DNA of 64,000 bases, from the NCBI GenBank assembly GCA_964454015.1, contig CAYVQF010000021.1, positions 13,890 through 77,889 on the forward strand. The letters run 5' to 3'. Position numbers and translations under genes: made by a program. Each line of letters begins with the position of its first letter. Position 1 is the stretch's first letter. The notes beneath the pieces were generated by a model. The model had not been told where the DNA came from. It worked only from the letters and a program-made list of their open reading frames with translations, and did no database searches. Of the stretch, positions 4,022-64,000 are shown in pieces. The stretch is from an uncultured Myxococcales bacterium. Lineage in GTDB: Bacteria > Myxococcota_A > Bradymonadia > UBA4248.

Positions 4022-4603
4022 ATGAAAACGCTGGTCTTCGATCTAGACGAAACGCTGGTCTTCTCGAGCCTCGAAGCCACGGATGACGCCGATCACGTGC
4101 TGAGCATCGCCGGTCAGACGGTCTACGTGCAGGTGCGTCCTGGCGCCCTGGCCATCGCACGGACCATGCGGGAGCTCTTCGCTTGTCGGGTGTGGAGCAC
4201 GGGACAACCGATCTACGTCGAAGCCGTCTGCGCCGCCATGGGGCTGGAATGGATGGAGATCTGGGGTCGGGATCGCTGCCGCCGCCTCGACGCCATCCCA
4301 GAGAACCACTTCGAGCCCTATGACAAGCCGCTGCACTTGATCAGCCAAGACTTGGCCAAGATCGTCATCGTCGACAACGCCCCCGGCGCCTTCAACTGCA
4401 ACCCCGAGAACGGTATCCCCATCAACACCTGGCGCGGCGATCCGGAAGACCGCCAGCTCTTCCACCTGACTTACTACCTGCGCTGGCTCCATCACTTGCC
4501 CGACATGCGGCGCGATCACCGGGCTTGGCCGCAAGAGACGGTCATCTTGCGCAACGAGCGTCGCTGTGGCCCCCTCAAGAACACGGGAGGGGGCCTCTCT
4601 TGA
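4022..4603 (+). CDS. HAD-superfamily phosphatase of the FCP1/NIF (CTD small phosphatase-like) type
   Basis: N-terminal DLDETLV (DxDxT catalytic motif characteristic of FCP1 homology/NIF domains). Downstream IVIVDN motif. Confidence 0.6.
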   Translation: MKTLVFDLDETLVFSSLEATDDADHVLSIAGQTVYVQVRPGALAIARTMRELFACRVWSTGQPIYVEAVCAAMGLEWMEIWGRDRCRRLDAIPENHFEPYDKPLHLISQDLAKIVIVDNAPGAFNCNPENGIPINTWRGDPEDRQLFHLTYYLRWLHHLPDMRRDHRAWPQETVILRNERRCGPLKNTGGGLS

Positions 4604-5273
4604 AATGCAAGGCCAGCCTGGCGGTGCTCTGCGGCCAAGTGTAGGCCAGCGCCCCCTGAAGCACCAGATTTGGCGCCACTTCAAGCGGGGACGCGCCCAA
4701 GGCTTGCCAGTGCGCTGCGCTGCAGAGAGCCACCACGTCGCCACCGGGACGCACCAGGCGCGCCGCCAAGGGCAGCCAACGCTCGAGTGGCGCGAAAGCC
4801 TTGGACACGGCGCACCCCATGGCCAAGGAGGTGGCAGAGCCGACCTCTTCCTCGAAATCCTCGATCCGCAGCGCGTGGCGGGTGATCCCCGTCAGCGCCA
4901 GTTGGCGCAATACCAGGCCCAGAAAGGCTTGCCGCTTGGCGCGGGGCTCCACCAAGTGGACTTCCAGCTCGGGCCGCAAGATCTTGATGGGGATCCCAGG
5001 CAGACCAGCACCGCTGCCCACGTCGACCACCGGGGAGAGCGGCTGCGGGCAAACGCGCAAGACCTGGAGGCTGTCACAGATCAAGGTTTGGGCCATCTCC
5101 TCTGGGCTGAGGGGCCCCACGAGGTTGGCCCGGCGGTTGACCCGAAGGAGTAGACGCAAGTAGGACGTCAGGTGCTCCATGACCGCCGCAGAGGCCGACC
5201 CCTCTCCTTGGGCCACAAAGTCCCTGAGGTGCTGCACCGCCGGGCGCAGCTCGCGTTCGAGTTCAGCGGCCAT
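4575..5273 (-). CDS. rsmG: 16S rRNA (guanine527-N7)-methyltransferase RsmG/GidB
   Basis: VVDVGSGAGLPGIPIKI SAM-binding motif and overall RsmG-like sequence. Start chosen at MAAELE... (ATG at 5273). The longer ORF extension is low-complexity. Confidence 0.75.
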   Translation of the reverse strand: MAAELERELRPAVQHLRDFVAQGEGSASAAVMEHLTSYLRLLLRVNRRANLVGPLSPEEMAQTLICDSLQVLRVCPQPLSPVVDVGSGAGLPGIPIKILRPELEVHLVEPRAKRQAFLGLVLRQLALTGITRHALRIEDFEEEVGSATSLAMGCAVSKAFAPLERWLPLAARLVRPGGDVVALCSAAHWQALGASPLEVAPNLVLQGALAYTWPQSTARLALHFKRGPLPCS

Positions 5274-5979
5274 GGTTCTCAACGGCCAGTGGCGCCCCAC
5301 GCTTCTTGGCCCGATGGCGCTGCAATGAGCCATCCCCGCGTCGGCCTTGCAGGAGGAGCACCATGAGGTAGGCCGGCAGGCCAAGCAACGCCACGGCAAA
5401 GTAGCTGTGGAGATAGAGGGCCGCCACGGCGAGGGCCAAGAGTGCCAGGGCCGCGCCCCACATGCCGAGGCGGAACGCCTCATCGTTGCGGCGGGTCCAG
5501 AGATAAAAGGCCTCCAATCCCGCCACCAGCGCCACGGCCACCGCTGCGACGGGCCACATGGCCTGCTCCAAGGTCTCGGCCGCCCCCTGCCGCAGCAGGA
5601 TCAGGCTCGCCACCCAGGCGACCACGGCGACGCCCATGAAAATCACCATCGCGTGGCGCAGGGGGCGGAGCATCTCCCCCTGGCGCGGCGCGGCCGTCAC
5701 GAGGGTACCCAGGCGGTCTTGCTGCAGCAGCCGCACGGCCGCAGCGAGTGCCACCACGCCAAAGGGCAGGGCCAGCACGCCGCCGAGGATGCCGAGGCGC
5801 GCCCCTTGACGCGGACGCCCGCCCTGCGCGAACAGCGCCCCTGCTCCAGCCAGCAGCGCCCCCGCGGCGCCCGTCACCCCCAGAATCCACAGCCAGGGCA
5901 ACGCGACCACCGGCACGACCCACAAGGTCACGGCACCGACGAAAGCGACCACGATTCCAAGCCACAACAGCGCAGTCAT
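5263..5979 (-). CDS. Hypothetical integral membrane protein (about 6 TM helices)
   Basis: Hydrophobic helices throughout (MTALLWLGIVVAFVGAVTLWVV...). ATG at 5979. Overlaps the rsmG start by 11 nt, which suggests co-transcription. Confidence 0.45.
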   Translation of the reverse strand: MTALLWLGIVVAFVGAVTLWVVPVVALPWLWILGVTGAAGALLAGAGALFAQGGRPRQGARLGILGGVLALPFGVVALAAAVRLLQQDRLGTLVTAAPRQGEMLRPLRHAMVIFMGVAVVAWVASLILLRQGAAETLEQAMWPVAAVAVALVAGLEAFYLWTRRNDEAFRLGMWGAALALLALAVAALYLHSYFAVALLGLPAYLMVLLLQGRRGDGSLQRHRAKKRGAPLAVENHGR

Positions 5980-35996: not shown

Positions 35997-38900
35997 GTGA
36001 TGGGCGACGGAATTTTCCTCAACGATCGTTACCGTATGGGTGACCTCCTGGGTGAGGGCGGCATGGGCCGTGTCTTCCGGGCTCAGGATCTCCGTCTCCA
36101 GCGCGACGTGGCGATCAAGTTCTTGCCACGCATCGACAAGGCGAGCATGGTCGAGCGCTTTCGCGCCGAAGCCATGGCCGTGGCCCGTCTGAATCACCCC
36201 AACATCGTGACGGTCTTCGACTACGATTACCTAGAGGGCAACCACGCGGCCCTGAGCGCTCTGGGTCTGTCGCAGAACCCGCCCTGCCTCCCCGGGGACG
36301 ATCTCGCTGGCGAGCTCCAGCGTGGCCAACCTTTCATCGTCATGGAGTATCTGCCGGGGAAGAGCATCCGCGAGGCCGAGCTCAGCGACGCCGTGGCCAT
36401 CCTCGACGTGGGGCTCGCCCTGTGCGACGCCCTCGACTACGCTCACCGCGAAGGGATCGTGCACCGCGACGTCAAGCCCGACAACATCCGCATCACCGAC
36501 GATGGGCGGGTGAAGCTCCTCGATTTTGGCATCGCCTCCTTCTGCCACCGGCGGCGGATCACCCTGGACGGCGAGGTCCTGGGCTCTCTGGTCTATATGT
36601 CACCCGAGCAGGCCCTGAGTGAGCCCATCGACGCCCGCTCGGACATCTACGCCCTGGGTCTGGTCCTGTACGAGTTGCTGGCAGGGCGGCTGCCCTTCGA
36701 TGTCTCCAGCCCCATGCGCTCCTTGGAGCAACGCACCTCGGGGACCTTGCCCGGCCTGCGCAAGTTTTGCCCCAAGCTGCCCCTGGCGTTGGAGCAGGTC
36801 TTGGCGCGGGCCTTGGCGCGCCAGCCCGAGGGGCGCTACGCGACAGCGAGCGACTTTGGCCAAGCCCTCCGCGAAGTGCGCGACGCCATGGCCCAGAGCA
36901 TGGCCAACGCCACGACCTTCGGCCGCTATGAGCTGATCAAGCTCTTGGCCGTTGGCGGCATGGGGGAGATCTACCTGGCCCGCGTCAAGGGCCCCGCCAA
37001 CTTTGAGAAGCGCTGCGTCATCAAGAAAATCCTGCCGCATCTGGCCACCGAAGAGGAGTTCGTCACCAAGTTCATCGACGAAGCCAACACGGTGGTTCAG
37101 CTCACCCACGGCAACATCGTGCCGGTCTTCGACATGGGTGAGCACCAGGGGGAATACTTCATCGCCATGGACTACATCCCTGGCGTCAACCTGCGCACCC
37201 TGCTCAAGGCCCGGGCGCAGCGCCAGAGTCCTCTGCCGGTGGCCATGTGCATCCACCTCCTCTGTGAGGTGTGTAAGGGTCTGAGCTACGCCCACCGCAA
37301 ATGCGGCACCGACGGTCAAGCCCTGGGGATCATCCACCGCGACATCAGCCCCTCGAACATCTTGGTCTCTCTCGAAGGAGAAGTGCGGCTCGTCGACTTT
37401 GGCATCGCCAAAGCGACCTCGCGGATCACCCGCAGCGTGACGGGTCGCCTGCAGGGCAAGTTCGGCTACATGAGCCCTGAGCAAGCCAGTGGCGCCCCCC
37501 TCGATCTGCGCTCGGACATCTTCTCGGCTGGCGTCGTTCTCTACGAATGCCTGACCGGCGCCCGTCCTTTCGAAGGGGAGTCAGACCTGGCCTCCCTCGA
37601 GGCCGTCAAGAGTCACGAGGCGGCGGCACCCAGCACGTTGCGCCCAGGGATCGCCAAGGAGCTCGACCAGATCGTCGCCAAAGCGCTGGCCAAGAAGCCA
37701 GCGGATCGTTTCGCCAATGCCGACGACTTCCTCGACGCGTTGCTGAAGTTTTTGGTGACCACGGGCCAACATGTGACGCCGCAGGACCTGGCCAAAGAGG
37801 TCGCCGCCGACATGGACGGCGGCGACGACGCCATGGGCGGCGCTGCCTGCCTCGACGCCTTGCTCGGGCAGGAGGTTGACAGGCTCATCGCCGCAGAGCG
37901 GCGCCAGAGCGCGCAGACGCTGACGGCAACGGCCGACTCGAACCGCACGAACGACGGCGCCGCGCTCCTCGCCCCGCTCAGCGAAGAGGACACGGCGACC
38001 CTCTCGTCACCGGGGCAGACCCCTACGGCGCCACCACGCGATGAGCCTAGCCCTGCCCCCAAGCGCCAGGGCTCGCGTCGGTGGCGGTGGTTGGCGGCCC
38101 TGCTGCTCGTGGGGCTGGTGCTCTTCCTCGGGCAACAGTGGCTGGCCCAACGCAGCGGTCAAGCGCCTCAGCAGATCACGCCTGCGGCGGCGGCCGCCGC
38201 TGCGGCGCCGGAGGTGGATCCAGAAGAAGCCGACGTGGAGCCACCCCAGGTCCCGGCCCAGACTGAACCCGTCGCGCGCTGGCACAGCTTCGACTTCGTC
38301 ACCAGCCCGGAAGAAGCGCTGATGGTCGTCCAATCGGGGCTCGCCGATGTGGACCACAGCGCCGATCTGGTGCGCCTCAACACGAGTCGCCAGGCGTCGC
38401 TGACCTTCTCCGCCGAGGGATATGCGGCCTGCACGCTGGACTTGCAACTCGCGCCCCTGATGGGCGAGCCCGTGCAGGTGCCCGTCCTGCACGCCAAAGG
38501 CTGTCTCAGCGCCTATATCGCCGGGGGATCCCCCCTGCCCGATGGCACACTGAGCATCGCCGTGCAGCTCGCCAAGCTGGACGTGGTGGTCGAGGTTGCG
38601 CCGCCCGACAGCGGCGAGGGCAGCGTTGCCAATGGTTCTTCCCGCAGGGATGGCAACGGCAAGCGGCCCAAGGAGGGGGAGCGCAGCCCGCGGGCGCTGG
38701 CCGTGACGGTGCGCTCCAACGTCGAGGCGACGGTCAGCCTCGGTGATCGCAGTGGTGCGGCGCCCTTCACGGCGCAGGTCAACCGCGGCCAGGACGCCGT
38801 GCAGATCAAAGTGACGCCGCGCGGGCTGGGGCTGCCTTGGCAGCGCAGCTTCGATCCGGCGAGCGTAGAGCGCGGCTTGGAGCAGACGGAGATGGAGGCG

Positions 38901-39161
38901 CGTTTCTGCCCGGTGGTGGTACACGTGGTGGAGCCGCGCATCCCCGACGATCCAGCGCCTTATGGCGTGGCAGACGTCTACGTGGGTGAGGCGTTGATCG
39001 CGCGCGGGGTTTCGCGGGCTTCCTTCGTGGTGCCCTGTGGGCGGCACAAGGTCAGCTTGCGCTATCGCGGCGACGACGTGGAGTTGCAGGGCGAAGCGTT
39101 GGTGGACGCCAGCAGCGACAAAGCAGCCAGCGCCTCGATCGCCATGCAGCGGGTCCGATAA
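35997..39161 (+). CDS. Membrane Ser/Thr protein kinase with two tandem kinase domains and C-terminal PEGA-like extracytoplasmic region
   Basis: Domain 1 has GEGGMGRVF, VAIKFL, HRDVKPDN and DFG. Domain 2 has GGMGEIYLA, VIKKIL, HRDISPSN and DFG. A TM helix WRWLAALLLVGLVLFLG follows, and the C-terminus carries a PEGA-like VYVGEALIARGVSRASFVVPCGRHKVSLRY. Confidence 0.8.
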   Translation: MMGDGIFLNDRYRMGDLLGEGGMGRVFRAQDLRLQRDVAIKFLPRIDKASMVERFRAEAMAVARLNHPNIVTVFDYDYLEGNHAALSALGLSQNPPCLPGDDLAGELQRGQPFIVMEYLPGKSIREAELSDAVAILDVGLALCDALDYAHREGIVHRDVKPDNIRITDDGRVKLLDFGIASFCHRRRITLDGEVLGSLVYMSPEQALSEPIDARSDIYALGLVLYELLAGRLPFDVSSPMRSLEQRTSGTLPGLRKFCPKLPLALEQVLARALARQPEGRYATASDFGQALREVRDAMAQSMANATTFGRYELIKLLAVGGMGEIYLARVKGPANFEKRCVIKKILPHLATEEEFVTKFIDEANTVVQLTHGNIVPVFDMGEHQGEYFIAMDYIPGVNLRTLLKARAQRQSPLPVAMCIHLLCEVCKGLSYAHRKCGTDGQALGIIHRDISPSNILVSLEGEVRLVDFGIAKATSRITRSVTGRLQGKFGYMSPEQASGAPLDLRSDIFSAGVVLYECLTGARPFEGESDLASLEAVKSHEAAAPSTLRPGIAKELDQIVAKALAKKPADRFANADDFLDALLKFLVTTGQHVTPQDLAKEVAADMDGGDDAMGGAACLDALLGQEVDRLIAAERRQSAQTLTATADSNRTNDGAALLAPLSEEDTATLSSPGQTPTAPPRDEPSPAPKRQGSRRWRWLAALLLVGLVLFLGQQWLAQRSGQAPQQITPAAAAAAAAPEVDPEEADVEPPQVPAQTEPVARWHSFDFVTSPEEALMVVQSGLADVDHSADLVRLNTSRQASLTFSAEGYAACTLDLQLAPLMGEPVQVPVLHAKGCLSAYIAGGSPLPDGTLSIAVQLAKLDVVVEVAPPDSGEGSVANGSSRRDGNGKRPKEGERSPRALAVTVRSNVEATVSLGDRSGAAPFTAQVNRGQDAVQIKVTPRGLGLPWQRSFDPASVERGLEQTEMEARFCPVVVHVVEPRIPDDPAPYGVADVYVGEALIARGVSRASFVVPCGRHKVSLRYRGDDVELQGEALVDASSDKAASASIAMQRVR

Positions 39162-56237: not shown

Positions 56238-57305
56238 ATGCCCTCGCCCCAAGCCCACCCCTTCGCGCTCACCTCGCCTCAGGCAGAAGGCGTCGTTGGC
56301 GTCGTGTTGTGCGCCGGCTTCGGCACGCGCTTGCGCCCCCTGACGGAGCACTTCGCCAAGCCAGCTCTCCCCTTTCTCGGCCGGCCGCTGGCTCACTACG
56401 CCTTCGCCAACCTCGCCCGGGCAGGCATCAGCACCGTCGGCGCCAACTATCACCACCTACCCCACACCATGGACGCCGCGCTGCAGCCGCTGGCCCCGGC
56501 CCTCACCCTGACCAGCCACACCGAAGAGGGAGAGATCCTCGGCACCGGCGGTGGGCTGCGCGAACTTTGGCGCCGACTCGGCCCGGACAAGACGGTGGTC
56601 CTCTGTCATGGCGATGTGCTCCTGGGGGCCGAGCTCAGGCCCATCGTGGCCGCCCACCTGGCCTCGGGCGTCGACGTCACCTTGGTACTGAAAGTCCGCG
56701 AGCCCGGCATGGACCTGCGCGGGGTCTTCACTGACCAATCGGGGGCGGTGGTGCAGATCCTCAAGCACCAAGGTCCTCGTCTGGCGCCGCCCCTCATGGA
56801 GCACGCCTTTTCGGGCGTACACATCCTGTCGCCGCGGGTGCTCGAGCACATCGCCACCGCCGGACCAGACTGCCTGGTGACCCGGGTCTATCCGGCCCTG
56901 CTAGCCCAGGGGGCAGCCATTGGCGCCTACCTCACGACGGCCTTCTTCGCCGATCTCGGGACCCCAGCGCGTTACCTCAGCGCACAAGCCACAGTACTCG
57001 CCATGCCCTGGTGTCTCCCGGGCGTCGACAGCGCCACGGGCGTCGCTGGAGCCGCCCTGGGCGCAGGTGAGATCACGGGGATGGCGGGCGCGCACATGGA
57101 TGGCCCCGTTCATGTCGCCGGGCACCTGCACCTGGATGAAGACGTCGTCATCGGCCCCAACGTCGCCCTGAGTGGCCACATCCACCTGCAGCGCGGCTGC
57201 CACCTGGACCACTGCGCCGTGTGGGGGCAAGGCACGCTGCGGGGCACCCACCAGAACGCCCTGATCTACCTCAGCGGCGAGCAGGCCATCATCGCGCCTG
57301 CCTGA
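56238..57305 (+). CDS. Sugar-phosphate nucleotidyltransferase with a C-terminal left-handed beta-helix
   Basis: VVLCAGFGTRLRPLT matches G-x-G-T-R-L. Downstream hexapeptide repeats (HLHLDEDVVIGPNVALSGHIHLQRG). Start could be 56211. Confidence 0.65.
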   Translation: MPSPQAHPFALTSPQAEGVVGVVLCAGFGTRLRPLTEHFAKPALPFLGRPLAHYAFANLARAGISTVGANYHHLPHTMDAALQPLAPALTLTSHTEEGEILGTGGGLRELWRRLGPDKTVVLCHGDVLLGAELRPIVAAHLASGVDVTLVLKVREPGMDLRGVFTDQSGAVVQILKHQGPRLAPPLMEHAFSGVHILSPRVLEHIATAGPDCLVTRVYPALLAQGAAIGAYLTTAFFADLGTPARYLSAQATVLAMPWCLPGVDSATGVAGAALGAGEITGMAGAHMDGPVHVAGHLHLDEDVVIGPNVALSGHIHLQRGCHLDHCAVWGQGTLRGTHQNALIYLSGEQAIIAPA

Positions 57306-57469
57306 GCGGCCACGCCTGCTGCGCGACGATCACATCGATGGCAGCTCACAAGGCCAACCAATTTGCCGCTGCTCTTGTAGGCGGCCAGACAATCCGCTAT
57401 GAAGCCCTGCGTTGGGTTGGCTGCGCGTGTCACCACTGCGCAGCATCACTTGTAGCTGAAGGAGAACAC

Positions 57470-58324
57470 ATGAACTTTTCTCGAAAAAACAACGAAAGCC
57501 TCCGCCTGGCGCTCATGCTGGCCCTGGCGCTCTCGATCTTCGCCGTTGCCGCCTGTGACGACGAGACATCGGACCCCAAGCCCGCCGACACCCAGGACAC
57601 CTCGAACTCCGACTTGGTCGTTCCTGACGTCACGGAGCTCGACGGCAGCGAACCCGACGTCACCGAGCCTGACGTCACCGAGCCCGACGTCACCGAGCCC
57701 GACCTCACCGAGCCCGACCTCACGGACATCGCCGAGCCCGACGTCACGGACATCGCCGAGCCCGACGTCACGGACGTCGCCGAGCCCGACGTCATCGAGG
57801 TGCCCACCGAGGAGTGGATCGGCGCGAGCTGCGCGTGCGAAGGCAACGGCTGCGTGACCTTGGGCGTGCCCGTACCCAACGGCGGCACGATCGTCGGCTG
57901 CGACAACGTGCCCACGGACTTGACTGGCGCCGAGCTGGTGTGCTTGCGCACCTACGTCGGCGAGGGCGGCACCAAGACCTATTTCGCCAACGGTTACTGC
58001 TCGCTGATGTCGGTGGCCTGCACGGGCAGCGATGTGATCTGCACTCCGGCGACCATGGGGGATCACACGGCGATGACGCGCTGCCCCGCGGGTTCGGCGA
58101 TGGTGGAGTCGACCATCGACGTCAACGTGATCATTTTCGATGCGACCGTTTCGAACAAGACCTGCGCCCTGCGCTGCGAAAGTGACGCCGACTGTCGCTT
58201 GGGCGAGACGGATCCGGTGTTGAATGACGCGCCGTCCCAGTACGCTTGCGTCGACGGCGGCACAGCCAAGTTCTGCTATGATCCCAGGAACTTGCCTGCA
58301 GAGTACACAGTCACGCCGTTCTGA
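57470..58324 (+). CDS. Lipoprotein with an acidic (E/D)PDVT tandem-repeat linker and a C-terminal Cys-rich domain
   Basis: Lipobox FAVAAC. About 10 copies of EPDVT/EPDLT/DIAEPDVT. A C-terminal domain with about 12 Cys. Confidence 0.6.
   Translation: MNFSRKNNESLRLALMLALALSIFAVAACDDETSDPKPADTQDTSNSDLVVPDVTELDGSEPDVTEPDVTEPDVTEPDLTEPDLTDIAEPDVTDIAEPDVTDVAEPDVIEVPTEEWIGASCACEGNGCVTLGVPVPNGGTIVGCDNVPTDLTGAELVCLRTYVGEGGTKTYFANGYCSLMSVACTGSDVICTPATMGDHTAMTRCPAGSAMVESTIDVNVIIFDATVSNKTCALRCESDADCRLGETDPVLNDAPSQYACVDGGTAKFCYDPRNLPAEYTVTPF
57651..57800 (+). repeat. Tandem 15-nt/24-nt coding repeats (GAGCCCGACGTCACC family)
   Basis: Five consecutive 15-nt units, then three 24-nt units GAGCCCGACGTCACGGACATCGCC, with point variants. 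Confidence 0.85.
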
Positions 58325-58622
58325 GCTAGGTAGCGCCGGGTCACTTGCTTAGATCAAGAGGTGCTGGCGACATCCACCTTGCGTTGCGGCACAAGCTTGG
58401 GCACCGGGCTCCAACGCAGCCCACCGTTGCCGCAACGGCAAAGAGCAGCAGGGAGTGCCTGCGCAGCGTTGGGCCCCTGGCGCGCGCCGCTGAGAGCTCC
58501 ACGCTCCCCCGAGCCAGCGAGCGGCAGCGCCATGTACCTTGGAAGTAGCACCCAAGGCAGGCCTGTGGTAGTGCAAGGAGTTGCCACGCAGGCGCAGCGG
58601 CGCCAGCGTGCCTTTGGGTATC

Positions 58623-61451
58623 ATGGAGAAAGCGATGGGCGCACGCAGAATGAGCTTCGTCGATGAGAAGCGTTGGATCCTGGACCTGAGCGATCTGGTC
58701 GAGCGTGACGTCAAGCCCGCCCGCTTGCGTCAGTTGCGCATGCGCGTCGGCGGCAAGGCGCTCAACTTGGCACGGATGGCATCCCTGGGACTGGCCGTGC
58801 CCGACGCCTTCGTCATCACCACCGAGGCCTTTCGCTTTGGCTTGGATCGCATGCTGCGCCATGTACCCGACCTGCGGCACGCCGCGCAGACCCTGCGCAC
58901 GGCCCCGCTCCCACCCGCTCTTGCTCAGGCGTTGGCCGAAGCTTACGCCCAGCTAGGGCCCGACGCCACGGTGGCCGTTCGCTCCAGCGCCACCGATGAG
59001 GACGGCGAAGAGCGCTCCTTTGCGGGTCAACAGGCGACCTTTCTCAACGTGCGCGGGGCTGCCGCCGTCGATCAAGCCGTGCGCGACGTGTGGGCGAGTC
59101 TCTTTGGCGTCGAGTCGCTGCTGTACCGGGGCCGCTTGCGCCTGGATGAGCGGCCACCCGAGATGGCCGTGGTGGTGCAGCGTTTCGTGCGGGCTGAGGT
59201 CGCAGGCGTGCTGTTCACCACCAATCCCCTAGACAGTGAGGCCGACGAGGCCATGATCTGTTCGGCCTACGGTATCGGCGAGAGCGTGGTCGCTGGCCAC
59301 GCCGCCGACACCTTCTACATTCACCGCAAGCGGCGCACCATTCGGCGGGCCGTACGCCCCAAGACCTCGAAGTTCGAGGCTGCCGACCGCGTGGGTCTGA
59401 AGCTGGTGAGCCTCCCGGAAGACTTGGCCGAGGCGCCCAGCTTGAGCGAGGCGCGGGTGCAACACCTCCTCGACTTGGGACTCTCTTTGGAGCGCTATTT
59501 TGGTGAGGCCCAGGACATCGAGTTCGCCTTCGCCCCCGAGAGCGGGGCGCTCTCGGCGGGCCAGGCAGAAGATGGTCTCTACGTCTTGCAGGCCCGCACC
59601 ATTACCGGCCGCCGCGAGGCCTCACTGGTGCCGGGTCCAACGAGCACCCTCTATTCCAACGCCAACGTCGGCGAGGCGTTGCCTGGGGTCGGGACACCCA
59701 TCACCTGGTCGATCATCCGCGGCTACACGCGCCGCGGCTTCGACAGCGCCTTTGGCGCCCTCGGTTTGCGCGTGCCGCGGGAATACGCCATGGTCGCCTC
59801 CTTTCGCGGCCGTGTCTATTTGAACATCTCCGAGTTCGTCTCGGTGGCGTCACAGATTCCCCTGCTCACCGGCGAGACCTTGGCGCGCCTTGGCGGCGTC
59901 CTGAATGCCACCGGTCTTGAAGGCACCTACACCCGGATGCGCCCGGGCGCCTTTTTGCGCCGCCTCCCCATGACCTTGCCCCGGCTGGCCATGAGTCAGT
60001 TCGTGACGCCCCTCCGCGCCGCCTGGTGGTCGCGCCGTTTCGTCCACCGCCGGGATCACATCCTGCAGCGGGATTTGGGCAAGCTCGAGAAGCACGCCCT
60101 CCTGGACCTCGCCCATGAGATCGACGCCATTTTTCATCAGACAGGCGAGCTGATGCTGTCTTGTGCGGCGAACTTCCTCATGAGTTACGCCGTTGTCAGC
60201 CGCGCCCTCGAGGTCGTGGGTGGCGCTGAGGCCGCCCGAGAGGAGACGGAGCTCTTCAGCGGCCTGACCCGGGTACGCAGCGCCGCACCAGGTCTGGAGC
60301 TTCTGGCCCTGGCGGCCTACATCCGTGCGCGGCCTCTGTTGCGCGCGCGCTTTGGCCAGGGATGTTGCCAGGATCTGCAGGACAAAGACTGCGGTGAGGC
60401 CCTCCTGGCCACCTTGCGCGAGAGCGCCGAAGGGCGAGAGTTCCTCAAACGCCTCGACGCCTTCCTCGCCCGTTGGGGCCTGCGTGCCTTGCGCGAAGCA
60501 GACATCGCCACGCCGCGCTGGCGCGAAGATCCGAGCTTTCTCCTCGGCGTCTTACAGCGCCACGTCAGCGCCGAGCACCTCCCGCACCCCGAGAGCATCG
60601 AAGCCGAGCAGGCACGCCAGCGCGCCCAGGCGACCCACTTCATTCGCCGCCACTTCTTTCCCGGCCTCGGCGTGGTCTTTCGCTCGCTCTTGGCCTGGTC
60701 ACAGGCCTATGCCCGTCTGCGCGAGGAGTGGCGCGCCAATGTGGTCGACAGCATCGCCCTCTACCGGCATTTCTTCCTGGAGATTGGCCGGCGCCTGGTT
60801 GACCACAACCTCCTCTGTGAGCAAGAGGACGTCTTCTTCCTCACTTACCCTGAAATCGTCGCCTGGCTCGAAGGCGGCGGCGAGCTGGTCCACGCGGCCC
60901 GCCGCTGGGTCGCCTTCAGGCGCGCGCAGTATGACGCCTTCGTCGAGAGCCCGGATCCACCGGACACCTTCCTTTTGACCCACGCCCAGGAAGTCCAAGA
61001 CGTCGCGCCACCTGCCATCGAGGGAGACAACCTCTATGGTCTCCCGGGCTCGCCCGGCGTGGTCAGCGGCAGAGCGCGGGTCATCGAGTCCCTCCAGGGC
61101 GCCCACATCCCGATCCAGACCGGGGAGATTCTCGTCACCACCTTCACCGACGTCGGCTGGACCCCTCTGTTCTTGCTCGCCGCAGCGGTCGTCACCGAGC
61201 GTGGCGGTCCCTTGTCACACTCCTGTGTCGTCGCCCGCGAGTACGGCATCCCCGCGGTAGCCGGCGTCACGGGGGTCATGCAGCGGGTGGCCAACGGGGA
61301 TCTCATCACCGTCGATGGGAAGGCGGGCCGCGTGGTCATTCACCGCGACGCGAGTGGCACGGCGGCCCACCCCGACGCGCCAGGCCACTCACCCGAGCCC
61401 GTTATCGGCGAGAATGGCACGCACATCCACAAAGGGCACGTCGTCGTCTGA
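58623..61451 (+). CDS. PEP-utilising-domain phosphotransferase of the rifampicin-phosphotransferase (RPH)/PEP synthase-like family
   Basis: N-terminal PPDK-N ATP-grasp region (RVGGKALNLARM..., VAVRSSATDEDGEERSFAGQQATFLNV). C-terminal swivel phospho-His domain GGPLSHSCVVAREYGIPAVAGV. No C-terminal TIM-barrel PEP/pyruvate domain. Start is uncertain (TTG 58581, ATG 58623 or 58635). Confidence 0.65.
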   Translation: MEKAMGARRMSFVDEKRWILDLSDLVERDVKPARLRQLRMRVGGKALNLARMASLGLAVPDAFVITTEAFRFGLDRMLRHVPDLRHAAQTLRTAPLPPALAQALAEAYAQLGPDATVAVRSSATDEDGEERSFAGQQATFLNVRGAAAVDQAVRDVWASLFGVESLLYRGRLRLDERPPEMAVVVQRFVRAEVAGVLFTTNPLDSEADEAMICSAYGIGESVVAGHAADTFYIHRKRRTIRRAVRPKTSKFEAADRVGLKLVSLPEDLAEAPSLSEARVQHLLDLGLSLERYFGEAQDIEFAFAPESGALSAGQAEDGLYVLQARTITGRREASLVPGPTSTLYSNANVGEALPGVGTPITWSIIRGYTRRGFDSAFGALGLRVPREYAMVASFRGRVYLNISEFVSVASQIPLLTGETLARLGGVLNATGLEGTYTRMRPGAFLRRLPMTLPRLAMSQFVTPLRAAWWSRRFVHRRDHILQRDLGKLEKHALLDLAHEIDAIFHQTGELMLSCAANFLMSYAVVSRALEVVGGAEAAREETELFSGLTRVRSAAPGLELLALAAYIRARPLLRARFGQGCCQDLQDKDCGEALLATLRESAEGREFLKRLDAFLARWGLRALREADIATPRWREDPSFLLGVLQRHVSAEHLPHPESIEAEQARQRAQATHFIRRHFFPGLGVVFRSLLAWSQAYARLREEWRANVVDSIALYRHFFLEIGRRLVDHNLLCEQEDVFFLTYPEIVAWLEGGGELVHAARRWVAFRRAQYDAFVESPDPPDTFLLTHAQEVQDVAPPAIEGDNLYGLPGSPGVVSGRARVIESLQGAHIPIQTGEILVTTFTDVGWTPLFLLAAAVVTERGGPLSHSCVVAREYGIPAVAGVTGVMQRVANGDLITVDGKAGRVVIHRDASGTAAHPDAPGHSPEPVIGENGTHIHKGHVVV

Positions 61452-62087
61452 GAAGGGCAACCCTTGGGCGGCAACCCGGCGCATGGCCCGGTCGAAGTGT
61501 GCATCGACCCGATCCGCGCTGGGACACATCCGGTAGTAGGCCCATCCGGTAAAGAGCCGCCTGATCCCACCCCAGGTCGGCATCTCCTTGCGCAGCCAAT
61601 AGGAGATGCACAGGTCCATGGTGTAGCCCCGGACCTCGGTCCAAGTACGCCAGGGCGCAGGCCACGGCGCCAAGGCCAGCAGGAAGAGCAAGAAGAGCCA
61701 GCCCCACGGGGTCCACCACGCGCTCACGGCGCCGAGCGCTCCCAGGACGGCGAGTTGGGGCATCAGGTACCCGAGGGAGAAGCGCCAGCGCGACTGTTTG
61801 GCGTCCCACAAGTGCACATACTCGTGGGCGAGAGTCTGCCAGGCCATGCGCGGGTATTTCTGCACATCCGCCCGAGTCGGGAAGTAGACCCGCGGGTAAA
61901 TGGCCGTGGTATAGTCCCGCATATAGCCCGCGACAAAAGGTCGCAGCAGCCAGCCCAAGAGGCGCTGCTGCCGCGACTCATCCTTGTAGTGAATGGCAAA
62001 GCCAGGAATCCGCTCGGCCATCCTCTCACAAAGCGCTGCCAATATCTGTTCGTCGACGCTCTCGACGCCTTGCACCACACGTTGCAT
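61389..62087 (-). CDS. Hypothetical membrane-associated protein with an HExxH motif (possible zinc metallopeptidase-like)
   Basis: HEYVHLWD, then a hydrophobic helix LAVLGALGAVSAWWTPWGWLFLLFLLALA. Its 3' end overlaps the convergent RPH-like gene by about 63 nt. Confidence 0.35.
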   Translation of the reverse strand: MQRVVQGVESVDEQILAALCERMAERIPGFAIHYKDESRQQRLLGWLLRPFVAGYMRDYTTAIYPRVYFPTRADVQKYPRMAWQTLAHEYVHLWDAKQSRWRFSLGYLMPQLAVLGALGAVSAWWTPWGWLFLLFLLALAPWPAPWRTWTEVRGYTMDLCISYWLRKEMPTWGGIRRLFTGWAYYRMCPSADRVDAHFDRAMRRVAAQGLPFSDDDVPFVDVRAILADNGLG

Positions 62088-62099
62088 GATCGCGACTCA

Positions 62100-63509
62100 T
62101 CAGCGCGTTCGCGCCGCGAACTCTCCCGTAATGGAGTAACGCGGCTTGCCGCTCTCGGAACCCTGCTGCGGTACTGCACCCTGGATCTGTTGGCGCAATA
62201 GCTGCCGCCGACAATCGGCGACGCGCGCCTCCAGCGCTTCCGACAGCGACACCACGTCGACAGGCAAGACCATATGCTTGTCGACGCCACAAAAATTGAC
62301 GGCCGCTTCGAGCATCTGGCCGTTGAGCTTGGCAGAGATCAGCAGCCGCTGGCTCGCTGGCATGTCGCGCAGCGCGTGCAGGACCCGGCTCTGCACGATG
62401 ACGTGCAGATCGCCAAAGAGCACCAACCACGGCGGCTGCACCTCGCCCGCGAGCAGGGCTTTGGCCTCGCGCGCCGCATCGTCGCGCGAGATCTCGATGA
62501 TGTCATAGTGGGAGGCCACCGTCCGCACGCGCTCGATGAAGACCTGATCCACCGCGGGATCACCCGAGAGGATCCAGATGCTCGGGTTCTCGCTGACGCC
62601 GCCGCCGTGACTCTCAGGGGCCGCAACCGCTCCCATACGGCCGCTGCTGTGGCGACGTTGAATGCCAGCGAAGGTGTCCGTGATGTCCACCGCCGCTACC
62701 GCCGTGTCGAAGGCATCCAGAAACTCCAAGGCGGTGTGATATCGCCGCTCCGGCTCTGGCGCCCAGGCCACAGCGACCGTCTCTACCAGACGCTCCCACA
62801 GATCCCGCGCGCTATCACTCAGCTCTTCTGCCCGGTAGCTGCACTCCCTCACCTGGCCAAAGAGGCACACACGCAAGACCATGCCAAGGGCATAGAGGTC
62901 AGAACGCACGGTCGGCGGCTCAGCAGCGAGCAGCTCGGGCGCCAAAAAGGGCAGGCGCTCCGCCTCCGCTGACAGCGCGCGGAGCCAGTGTGCCGGGTGC
63001 AGCGCCTGCTCGAGGCCATAATCGATGAGCGTCGCGTGTTCCGTGACGGCGTCATGCTCGGCCAACAAGATCGTGTGGGGCGAGATCTGCCGGTGCATCA
63101 GCCCGTTGCGGTGCCCCTCTGCCAAGGCGCCGAGGAGCTGTCGCGCCAGGTTGAGCACCCGCGCTGGCGCCAAGCGCCCCTCGCGCCGCAGGTGCTCGTG
63201 CAGCGTGTCCCCCAGGATGTACTCCATGACCACATAGGGGCCATGCACCCCGCCGATGTCGGCGGCGCCAGCGTCGATGACCGTACAGTTGTGCGGATGT
63301 TGCAAGCTCGACAGCGCGACAATCTCATTCTGAAAGCGTTGGGTCGCTTCGGTGATCTGGGTGGCCAGGAGGCGGATGACCACATAACGTCCCAGGTTGA
63401 CCTGACGGGCCAAGTAGGACGTGAAGAGCGTATTGCCGCCAAGGCGCTCCAGAATTTCGTACTCTTTGAGGTTGAGGTCGTCGAACTTCATCTTGGCCCT
63501 GATCACCAC
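62100..63509 (-). CDS. Degenerate protein-kinase-like (pseudokinase) domain fused to a receiver-like C-terminal domain
   Basis: Kinase-like fold with degraded catalytic motifs. The Gly loop is LGGNTLFTSY, HRQISPHT replaces HRDLKPxN, and DYG replaces DFG. The C-terminal 130 aa resemble a CheY-like domain (IWILSGDP...LVLFGDLHV). Confidence 0.5.
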   Translation of the reverse strand: MVIRAKMKFDDLNLKEYEILERLGGNTLFTSYLARQVNLGRYVVIRLLATQITEATQRFQNEIVALSSLQHPHNCTVIDAGAADIGGVHGPYVVMEYILGDTLHEHLRREGRLAPARVLNLARQLLGALAEGHRNGLMHRQISPHTILLAEHDAVTEHATLIDYGLEQALHPAHWLRALSAEAERLPFLAPELLAAEPPTVRSDLYALGMVLRVCLFGQVRECSYRAEELSDSARDLWERLVETVAVAWAPEPERRYHTALEFLDAFDTAVAAVDITDTFAGIQRRHSSGRMGAVAAPESHGGGVSENPSIWILSGDPAVDQVFIERVRTVASHYDIIEISRDDAAREAKALLAGEVQPPWLVLFGDLHVIVQSRVLHALRDMPASQRLLISAKLNGQMLEAAVNFCGVDKHMVLPVDVVSLSEALEARVADCRRQLLRQQIQGAVPQQGSESGKPRYSITGEFAARTR

Positions 63510-63624
63510 GCCGGAGTATCAGCCTCGAGGCCATCGGCCCCGGCAAAACCGGTGCATTGTCTGTTTTGCCACGGGAAACGCAATGTCTATTTTCCCCTCT
63601 GTTGCGAAAAATCAGCCTCGCCGC

Positions 63625-64000
63625 CTACTCCGACGCATCGAAGTAGAGGTTCAAGTGCCGCCCGTCGGAGACCATCGCCCGCTTGGGTTCACTGAACTTC
63701 TTCAAGTCGACGAAATAGACCCGGACCGTGTGGTTGCCGTTGTCGACCTTGAAACGGGTCAAGGGGGTCTTGGAGGCCACCAGCTTCCCATCGATATAGA
63801 CCTGGCCGCTGGGGTTGGAGTTGACCGTGAGGAAACCCGCACCATCGACCACCTCGGCCACCGGGTCTTCTTTGCTCTCCAACGGTGGCGGGGCGGCGCT
63901 GGCCATCTGCACGGGAGCAGCGCTCGTCGGCGCGGCGCTCGCCTTGTTGGTGGCCCCCGAGAGATCGACCACCAAAATCCGCGCCTCTCCCTTCTGCAGC
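63625..64000 (-). CDS. PEGA-domain protein; 5' end lies outside the window
   Basis: C-terminal PEGA signature GQVYIDGKLVASKTPLTRFKVDNGNHTVRVY. The ORF runs to the window edge. Confidence 0.5.
   Translation of the reverse strand, partial: LQKGEARILVVDLSGATNKASAAPTSAAPVQMASAAPPPLESKEDPVAEVVDGAGFLTVNSNPSGQVYIDGKLVASKTPLTRFKVDNGNHTVRVYFVDLKKFSEPKRAMVSDGRHLNLYFDASE

Follow-up and report, generated by a model that had tools for sequence, protein, structure and literature searches.

Gene and Protein Organisation

The DNA considered here is a stretch of 64,000 nucleotides from an uncultured Myxococcales bacterium (contig CAYVQF010000021.1, positions 13,890 to 77,889), which is referred to below, at its whole length, as the window. 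Close to its end, the minus strand carries a gene whose product combines, from the N- to the C-terminus, a kinase-like domain, a linker, a receiver-like domain and a short tail, and which is designated hereafter as the pseudokinase-receiver gene. Its features, with confidence in modelled structures expressed as the predicted local distance difference test (pLDDT), are as follows:

62100–63491, minus strand: pseudokinase-receiver gene, 463 amino acids from ATG 63491, stop codon 62100–62102
62709–63461, minus strand: Hanks-type kinase-like domain, catalytically degenerate, residues 17–267 (Pfam Pkinase and PknB alignment)
62586–62708, minus strand: linker, weakly conserved, residues 268–308 (alignment A1; low pLDDT in both models)
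62175–62585, minus strand: divergent receiver (REC, CheY-like) domain, residues 309–445
62103–62174, minus strand: C-terminal tail, residues 446–469, with the motif R-x-S-[IL]-T-G-x-F-A-A-x-T-R

An alternative in-frame GTG at 63509 would add six residues and give a protein of 469 amino acids (open reading frame, ORF, 62100–63509). ATG 63491 was taken as the start because the public gene calls of the identical 463-residue protein (P0001, nine contigs) begin there and because two full-length homologues, namely P0002 and P0003, begin at the equivalent MKFDDLN or MRFEDLN; residue numbers given throughout are those of the 469-residue frame, i.e., with GTG 63509 as the start. No transmembrane segment was found in the protein (maximal Kyte-Doolittle mean over 19 residues of 1.36), which is predicted as soluble. 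A scan of positions 61200–64000 for promoters and terminators gave nothing interpretable on the strand of the gene. The tail motif is invariant in P0001–P0003, with R457, S459, T461, G462, F464, A465, A466, T468 and R469 as the invariant columns of alignment A1, is recognisable in a further relative, P0082 (GRFSITGAF), and is absent from the wider family described below. Predicted as disordered (pLDDT 61–66), this tail could be a phosphorylation or docking site.

A Kinase Fold Deprived of Its Catalytic Residues

The Pfam model Pkinase (PF00069) covers residues 17–220 with an E-value of 1.3e-21 (77.7 bits for a cut-off of 31.7), and structures of Mycobacterium tuberculosis PknB match residues 16–263 in a phmmer search (E 6e-24); on these matches, the N-terminal domain belongs by its fold to the Hanks-type (eukaryotic-like) protein kinase superfamily. 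The motifs were read from the alignment to PknB, from a MAFFT alignment of 99 kinase domains of the family together with PknB, and from a check of the codons:

Glycine loop: canonical GxGxxG, here G-G-N-T-L-F, lost
beta3: canonical VAVK/VAIK, here V-V-I-R46, Lys replaced by Arg
alphaC Glu: here Glu62, kept
Catalytic loop: canonical HRDxKxxN, here H-R-Q141-I-S143-P-H-T146, Asp, Lys and Asn lost
Metal binding: canonical DFG, here D163-Y-G, Asp kept
End of the activation segment: canonical APE, here APE, kept

The original prediction, made from the DNA letters and their translations, had claimed the loss of the glycine loop, of the catalytic Asp (HRQISPHT) and of DFG. The first two losses were found again, GxGxxG reading GGNTLF in both the PknB alignment and the codons, and the Asp being replaced by Q141, along with the Lys by S143 and the Asn by T146. 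The third has to be withdrawn, since the metal-binding Asp163 is present and DYG is common among relatives where all other catalytic residues are intact, as recorded in the motif table. Conversely, the replacement of the beta3 Lys by Arg46 (VVIR) is a catalytic change that had not been named. All in all, careful alignment reveals no intact catalytic set, which speaks for the proposed pseudokinase against an ordinary kinase. The same substitutions are retained in P0002 (about 55% identity) and P0003 (48% identity), i.e., GGN, V-x-I-R, H-R-Q-x-S-P and D-Y-[GA], and the non-catalytic state is therefore conserved rather than accidental, which indicates selection for it.

Three other explanations of this half of the protein deserve consideration. 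Firstly, the retention of the alphaC Glu62, the DFG Asp163 and the APE motif would be compatible with an atypical but active kinase, which would use Arg46 and Asp163 together with a relocated catalytic residue and phosphorylate its own receiver-like domain or tail; a beta3 Arg has been proposed as compatible with ATP binding in proteins of the DYD family, one of the bacterial pseudokinase families already described (PMC12599244). However, the catalytic Asp, the Lys and Asn of the loop and the glycine loop are lost all together, and likewise in the orthologues, while no compensating conserved acidic residue was identified; such an activity appears improbable. Secondly, the loss of several catalytic residues could also mark a decaying, non-functional kinase remnant, an explanation hardly credible for an ORF that is intact and identical on nine independent contigs, and with orthologues of 48–55% identity that are full length, bear the same substitutions, and share strongly conserved N-lobe and receiver-like segments. 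Thirdly, the models of PADLOC for the phage-defence kinase PD-T4-6 match the protein, up to E 2.9e-42, but the matches span the generic PknB-like kinase domain alone (residues 1–297); PADLOC has no model that matches the C-terminal domain or the neighbouring genes, the catalytic residues presumably needed by a defence kinase are absent, and the neighbours are housekeeping-type genes rather than a defence island. A defence kinase of this type is thus very improbable and the PD-T4-6 identity was rejected as a generic kinase-domain match. The reading retained, on the motifs, is that of a pseudokinase, namely a kinase fold without the residues required for canonical phosphotransfer.

A Divergent Receiver Domain With an Altered Pocket

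From about residue 300 to residue 469, the protein has no match in Pfam or NCBIfam, and none to Response_reg (PF00072) even at E ≤ 1. Across the 84 members of the family that were aligned, Response_reg is matched in a single one (E 0.0026), and a few match response-regulator models of NCBIfam with E-values of 1e-3 to 1e-4. An AlphaFold2 model of the domain built from this 84-sequence alignment (A3) reached a mean pLDDT of 91.4 and a predicted template modelling score (pTM) of 0.82, and consists of five strand-helix units, i.e., (beta-alpha)5, with a long last helix. Comparison of this model with the PDB by Foldseek was led by receivers, namely 3hv2 (E 1.1e-6), then 3snk, KdpE, HupR, XynC and PmrA, and the family profile run against PDB sequences matched receivers weakly (3hv2, E 4e-4; 6swl, E 7e-3 over the whole domain). 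The C-terminal domain is accordingly modelled as a receiver so strongly diverged that it escapes current libraries, and the fusion of a CheY-like module to the kinase-like domain, as initially proposed, is upheld by a predicted fold of high confidence whose best structural matches are all receivers. This domain is also better conserved than the protein as a whole, with 70% identity to P0002 and 54% to P0003, against some 55–56% and 48% overall.

The phospho-acceptor pocket was mapped through a HMMER alignment to 6swl and a hhalign alignment to Escherichia coli CheY, the latter of weak score yet full-length and in register, which agree with each other; the counts below are those of the 84-sequence domain alignment:

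CheY D12: G316 here; Gly in 38/84 and Asp in 25/84
CheY D13: D317 here; Asp in 71/84
CheY D57: D367 here; Asp in 61/84 and Gly in 13/84
CheY T87: S392 here; Ser in 71/84
CheY K109: L415 here; Leu in 57/84, Lys not among the six commonest residues tallied
CheY P110: P416 here; Pro in 73/84

The pocket is therefore kept in part: D317, D367 and S392 are in place, but the position of K109 is occupied by L415 and that of D12 by G316, so that in the acidic pair following beta1, which reads G316-D317, the second acidic residue alone is present. In receivers, the Lys corresponding to CheY K109 belongs to a small set of residues that are almost invariably present, and it makes contact with the phosphoryl group. 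That this Lys is lacking across the family, and that the acceptor Asp appears dispensable, speaks against a mode of action by aspartyl phosphorylation; Asp367 itself is still present in the window protein. Besides, the domain exhibits conserved residues of its own, namely W312, P360-W361, F365-G366, H369, N396, N405 and C407-G408, the Cys at position 407 being conserved in 52 of the 84 members, as well as an S-T-H-x-N motif after beta4, which is family-wide and became S-A-K-L-N in the window subfamily.

A genuine two-component receiver, where a histidine kinase or a small phospho-donor would phosphorylate D367 and thereby switch a pseudokinase scaffold, would be in line with the alignment of D317, D367 and S392 to CheY D13, D57 and T87, with the acceptor Asp retained in most members (61/84) and with top structural matches that are all phospho-accepting receivers. 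Yet this explanation has to accommodate Leu and Gly at the K109 and D12 equivalents, a Lys missing from the commonest residues of the whole alignment, a Gly at the D57 equivalent in 13 members, the near-complete silence of Response_reg reported above, and the lack of any histidine kinase or Hpt gene among the nearest genes; it is the foremost alternative to the reading adopted below, and is considered rather unlikely. In other words, the coupling of a pseudokinase to a two-component-like receiver put forward in the original prediction holds as regards the fusion, but not as regards a standard two-component receiver, the K109 position being Leu.

The Receiver-Like Domain Family

A HMMER profile built from the three sequences of the window subfamily was searched exhaustively against 1.84 billion cluster representatives (50%-identity clusters). 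It retrieved 109 proteins at E ≤ 1e-3, of which 66 reach E ≤ 1e-10, that share the receiver-like domain and have no family name. All are metagenomic, the names attached to them being "serine/threonine protein kinase" and "Deltaproteobacteria bacterium." P0001 matches the family profile with E 1e-92, in a search that was itself seeded from the window subfamily, and the score of the window ORF with the 84-sequence profile is 143.5 bits, a figure that is not independent as the profile contains its own domain and those of its two closest relatives. Three architectures can be discriminated:

Architecture 1: single kinase-like domain and receiver-like domain, about 440–540 amino acids (the type of the window protein)
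Architecture 2: two kinase domains and receiver-like domain, about 650–890 amino acids
Architecture 3: N-terminal CxxC...CxxC zinc ribbon and receiver-like domain, about 170–210 amino acids, no kinase

The zinc-ribbon members comprise P0103, P0113, P0121–P0123, P0125, P0135, P0142, P0154, P0158, P0166, P0174, P0178 and P0181, and by its appearance their N-terminal ribbon resembles the MJ0042 type.

Where kinase domains are present, four catalytic residues were scored, i.e., the beta3 Lys, the HRD Asp, the Asn and the DFG Asp. In the 22 tandem proteins, all four are kept by the distal kinase domain of 19 proteins and by the receiver-proximal domain of none, a layout that would correspond, from these residues, to an active kinase accompanied by a regulatory pseudokinase. 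Among the 54 proteins counted as single-domain, 30 have all four residues and just six also present the GxG loop; some of those proteins, of 627–686 amino acids, may contain a second domain that escaped detection. The window protein is one of the fully degraded single-domain forms, a dead offshoot of the family.

As for its closest relatives, P0082 (57–59% identity over the pieces that match) is broken up into four short ORFs on a long-read contig (L093, 7030–8399), probably through frameshift errors rather than as a real pseudogene, and is the sole match of a word-indexed search with the 84-sequence alignment. A single-protein scan of the contigs of species-representative genomes returned generic kinases of unrelated phyla and no family member; either the organism and the family lie outside the species representatives or they were missed by the scan patterns. 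The valyl-tRNA synthetase encoded in the window exhibits 70% identity with that of a "Myxococcota bacterium" metagenome-assembled genome, 65% with that of a Bradymonadales one and 54–55% with those of Persicimonas, Bradymonas and Lujinxingia; judged on sequence, the host belongs to an uncultured Bradymonadales-related lineage.

Sulfur-Carrier Genes Beside Distant Relatives

Seven distant members, each representing a separate 50%-identity cluster, were read together with their flanking genes, namely P0083, P0120, P0194, P0095, P0087, P0094, and P0097. In all seven, the kinase-receiver-like gene adjoins a TusA-DsrE2-like fusion gene or a DsrE gene, and in six of them a rhodanese gene of about 210–240 codons adjoins as well. 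The product of the fusion gene comprises one to five TusA repeats (CPxP motif) and a DsrE2-like domain, the gene at L095 being DsrE-only; at both L094 and L095, two paralogous kinase-receiver genes flank the TusA-DsrE gene. The TusA-DsrE/rhodanese clusters lie as follows:

L087/L088: 6001–10703
L089: 6001–10320
L090: 6001–8774
L091: 6001–8579
L092: 5441–9593
L094: 3196–8990
L095: 3140–8953

The window yielded no homologue of TusA, DsrE or rhodanese, nor do the contigs of P0002, P0003, and P0082 have one among their annotated genes. Because of this absence from the window, either the window subfamily has left the sulfur-carrier association or its partners lie elsewhere in the genome. With respect to the family, it may tentatively be suggested that a receiver lineage without aspartyl-phosphate chemistry couples Hanks kinases and pseudokinases of uncultured Myxococcota-like bacteria to a cytoplasmic TusA-DsrE-rhodanese relay, the window protein being a non-catalytic offshoot recruited away from it. 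The coupling would involve a new conserved pocket (F-G-D-[LM]-H-V, S-T-H-x-N and N-x-C-G) and could consist in sensing the state of the relay or in being its Ser/Thr-phosphorylated switch.

It is another matter whether the window protein would still regulate such a relay, encoded elsewhere, with a pocket sensing the relay rather than a phosphoryl group. The gene neighbourhoods of the seven distant members and the conservation of Cys407 are in favour of it, but neither the window nor the contigs of the three closest relatives provide the relay genes, and the window subfamily has swapped S-T-H-x-N for S-A-K-L-N; a retained role of this kind is judged quite unlikely.

Neighbouring Genes in the Window

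Around the pseudokinase-receiver gene and further away in the window, the following genes bear on the interpretation:

63625–64000 and beyond, minus strand: 3' part of a PEGA-domain gene (Pfam PEGA, E 5.4e-8), upstream of the pseudokinase-receiver gene
61389–62087, minus strand: downstream gene of 232 codons, starting 12 nucleotides past the pseudokinase stop, no family assignment
58581–61451, plus strand: phosphoenolpyruvate (PEP)-utilising enzyme, 956 amino acids, PPDK_N and PEP-utilizers domains, convergent with the 232-codon gene
35997–39161, plus strand: tandem kinase, 1054 amino acids, two Pkinase domains

A PEGA-domain gene upstream on the same strand had been announced and is indeed there. 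Its full-length product, as read on contig L002, has 236 amino acids and a hydrophobic N-terminal signal or anchor. The order PEGA gene, pseudokinase gene and 232-codon gene recurs unchanged on four public contigs, which stem from the same organism or a near-identical one. A homologue of the PEGA gene is found beside none of P0002 (L006), P0003 (L005), and P0082 (L093), L005 harbouring an unrelated PEGA protein about 2 kb off on the opposite strand; as this neighbour is not conserved beside relatives, a functional link to the PEGA protein is unsupported. On public contig Ga0334884_1006955 (L002), directly upstream of the PEGA gene and shortly past the right end of the window, lies a DDE_Tnp_1 transposase gene (4534–5742), so that the PEGA-pseudokinase pair adjoins an insertion sequence, and past the transposase the same contig carries genes for HypF, arginase and spermidine synthase.

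Since it starts 12 nucleotides after the pseudokinase stop, the 232-codon gene is probably co-transcribed with the pseudokinase-receiver gene. Its product displays a HExxH motif (HEYVH at residue 88), a hydrophobic stretch, and sub-threshold Pfam matches to Peptidase_M61 and DUF3267 (both E 0.066). The gene adjoins the identical pseudokinase gene on L001–L004 and is not found beside P0002, P0003, and P0082. The products of the PEGA and 232-codon genes were thus rejected as functional partners, neither being found beside homologues. By 63 bp, the 232-codon gene overlaps the 3' end of the convergent gene for the 956-residue enzyme, which is nearest to models of PEP synthase, Rph (rifampicin phosphotransferase), and RedH/PigC, all far below their cut-offs. 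Further upstream on the plus strand, the ORF 57221–58324 features a hydrophobic N-terminal segment, acidic EPDVT, EPDLT and AEPDVT repeats, and a Cys-rich C-terminal region; from these features, its product looks like a secreted or lipoprotein-type repeat protein.

The tandem kinase had been invoked as part of an elaborate Ser/Thr signalling neighbourhood. It is real and both its domains are intact (GxGGMG, Lys, HRD, Asn, and DFG), the first of them holding an insertion; after the kinase domains come a hydrophobic segment and a C-terminal region of about 400 amino acids without Pfam match. It lies 23 kb from the pseudokinase-receiver gene, with about 15 genes in between. With both kinase domains intact and no receiver-like domain, it was rejected as a related gene. 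Hanks kinases number in the order of a hundred in Myxococcota-type genomes, and with such numbers two kinase genes in 64 kb are no evidence of a dedicated neighbourhood.

Comparison With Known Systems

As regards the receiver-like half, the closest known domains are the receivers of RpfG-type HD-domain regulators (PDB 3hv2 and 2rjn), of XynC (6swl) and of HupR (2jk1). The window domain differs from them by the lack of a PF00072 match, by Leu at the K109 position and Gly in place of the first acidic residue, by its own conserved residues, and by its location, i.e., C-terminal to a kinase fold whereas theirs are N-terminal to an output domain. In the pseudo-receivers KaiA, CikA, and FrzS, as in aspartate-less receivers, the fold operates with an incomplete set of phospho-acceptor residues and presumably serves for interactions. 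The likeness to them, drawn from general knowledge, is one of principle: in the present family the acceptor Asp is mostly retained, the missing residue being the Lys, and to our knowledge the window domain has no detectable sequence relationship to KaiA, CikA or FrzS.

As regards the kinase-like half, JAK (JH1/JH2) and the plant tandem kinase proteins pair a catalytic domain with a regulatory pseudokinase. The 22 tandems of the family follow this logic, with a kinase domain followed by a degraded one and the distal domain intact in 19/22. Unlike in JAK and the plant tandems, the degraded domain stands alone in the window protein and the bacterial tandems end in a receiver-like domain, and no specific sequence relationship links them beyond the kinase superfamily. 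In M. tuberculosis, the pseudokinase domain of MviN is a non-catalytic docking platform, membrane-anchored within a cell-envelope machine. Another non-catalytic bacterial kinase fold that acts as a docking platform is that of EssB/YukC, the pseudokinase of the type VIIb secretion system (T7SSb) (PMC12599244). Both are membrane-anchored in envelope machines, whereas the window protein is predicted soluble and is fused to a receiver-like domain.

Seven families of bacterial Ser/Thr pseudokinases have been described, namely ActPs1, ActPs2, ActPs3, GLW, CP1, DYD, and DLHK; no listed family has a receiver, and the words "receiver," "response regulator," and "CheY" are absent from the text of the review (PMC12599244). 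With all seven, the window protein shares a Hanks-type fold with degraded catalytic motifs; with CP1 and DLHK, it shares a cytosolic location (predicted here) and extra domains; and with DYD, it shares a beta3 Arg and a Tyr after the DFG Asp (PMC12599244). DYD proteins are membrane-associated, occur in Actinobacteria and Firmicutes, lack the alphaC Glu and bear a D-Y-D motif (PMC12599244). On the motifs and architecture described, membership of DYD was rejected, the window protein being soluble by prediction and Bradymonadales-like, with Glu62 kept, D-Y-G in place of D-Y-D and the HRD Asp lost. In the literature searched, where subscription journals were poorly covered so that silence is weak evidence, neither a Hanks pseudokinase fused to a receiver nor a cluster of kinase, TusA-DsrE and rhodanese genes was found described. 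While both folds are well known, what is new is a Lys-less receiver lineage tethered to kinase and pseudokinase domains, of which the window gene is the fully non-catalytic form.

A Putative Non-Catalytic Adaptor

With a probability of roughly 0.55, the window protein would serve in signalling as a soluble adaptor without catalysis, built of two disabled signalling folds and acting by partner binding rather than by phosphate transfer. This reading is adopted because the catalytic site is dead, the pocket lacks its Lys, both halves are conserved (the receiver-like one more so), no transmembrane segment is present, the family pairs an active kinase with a pseudokinase, and neither a histidine kinase nor an Hpt gene is encoded nearby. 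By analogy with regulatory pseudokinases, the kinase-like domain would provide a docking or allosteric surface. The receiver-like domain, for its part, would act as a pseudo-receiver independent of phospho-Asp, i.e., as a dimerisation or partner-binding module; receivers commonly dimerise or bind partners through their alpha4-beta5-alpha5 face. Regulation may come from outside, e.g., speculatively, from an active Hanks kinase phosphorylating Ser/Thr residues of the linker, the receiver-like domain or the RxSITG tail.

Several points weigh against such an adaptor. With D317, D367, and S392 all kept in the window protein, phosphorylation of D367 is compatible with its sequence. The family is defined on gene sequences and predicted structure, and the full-length model is poor (pLDDT of 42.7, from a 4-sequence alignment), interdomain contacts being unreadable from it. 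Any partner is putative, and the neighbour genes are not conserved among the closest relatives. Lastly, several eukaryotic "pseudokinases" were later found to bind ATP or to catalyse in a non-canonical manner (PMC12599244).

Significance

Statements on the function of the window protein are inferred throughout. The original prediction was right about a pseudokinase-receiver fusion and overstated both the neighbourhood and a "two-component-like" function. The association with sulfur carriers, which is the most striking link of the family, does not hold for the window gene itself; if the TusA-DsrE-rhodanese linkage reflects function in the distant members, Ser/Thr signalling would thereby be tied to the trafficking of sulfur. 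Experimental work on bacterial pseudokinases is scarce, and none of their seven described families is joined to a receiver (PMC12599244). Two disabled signalling folds in one polypeptide, predicted soluble, offer a compact model for non-catalytic signalling in bacteria. Moreover, the family appears as a graded series, from (i) an apparently active kinase with the receiver-like domain, through (ii) an active kinase and a pseudokinase with the receiver-like domain, to (iii) the fully dead form, and such a series would permit direct tests of how catalysis is lost and of what replaces it.

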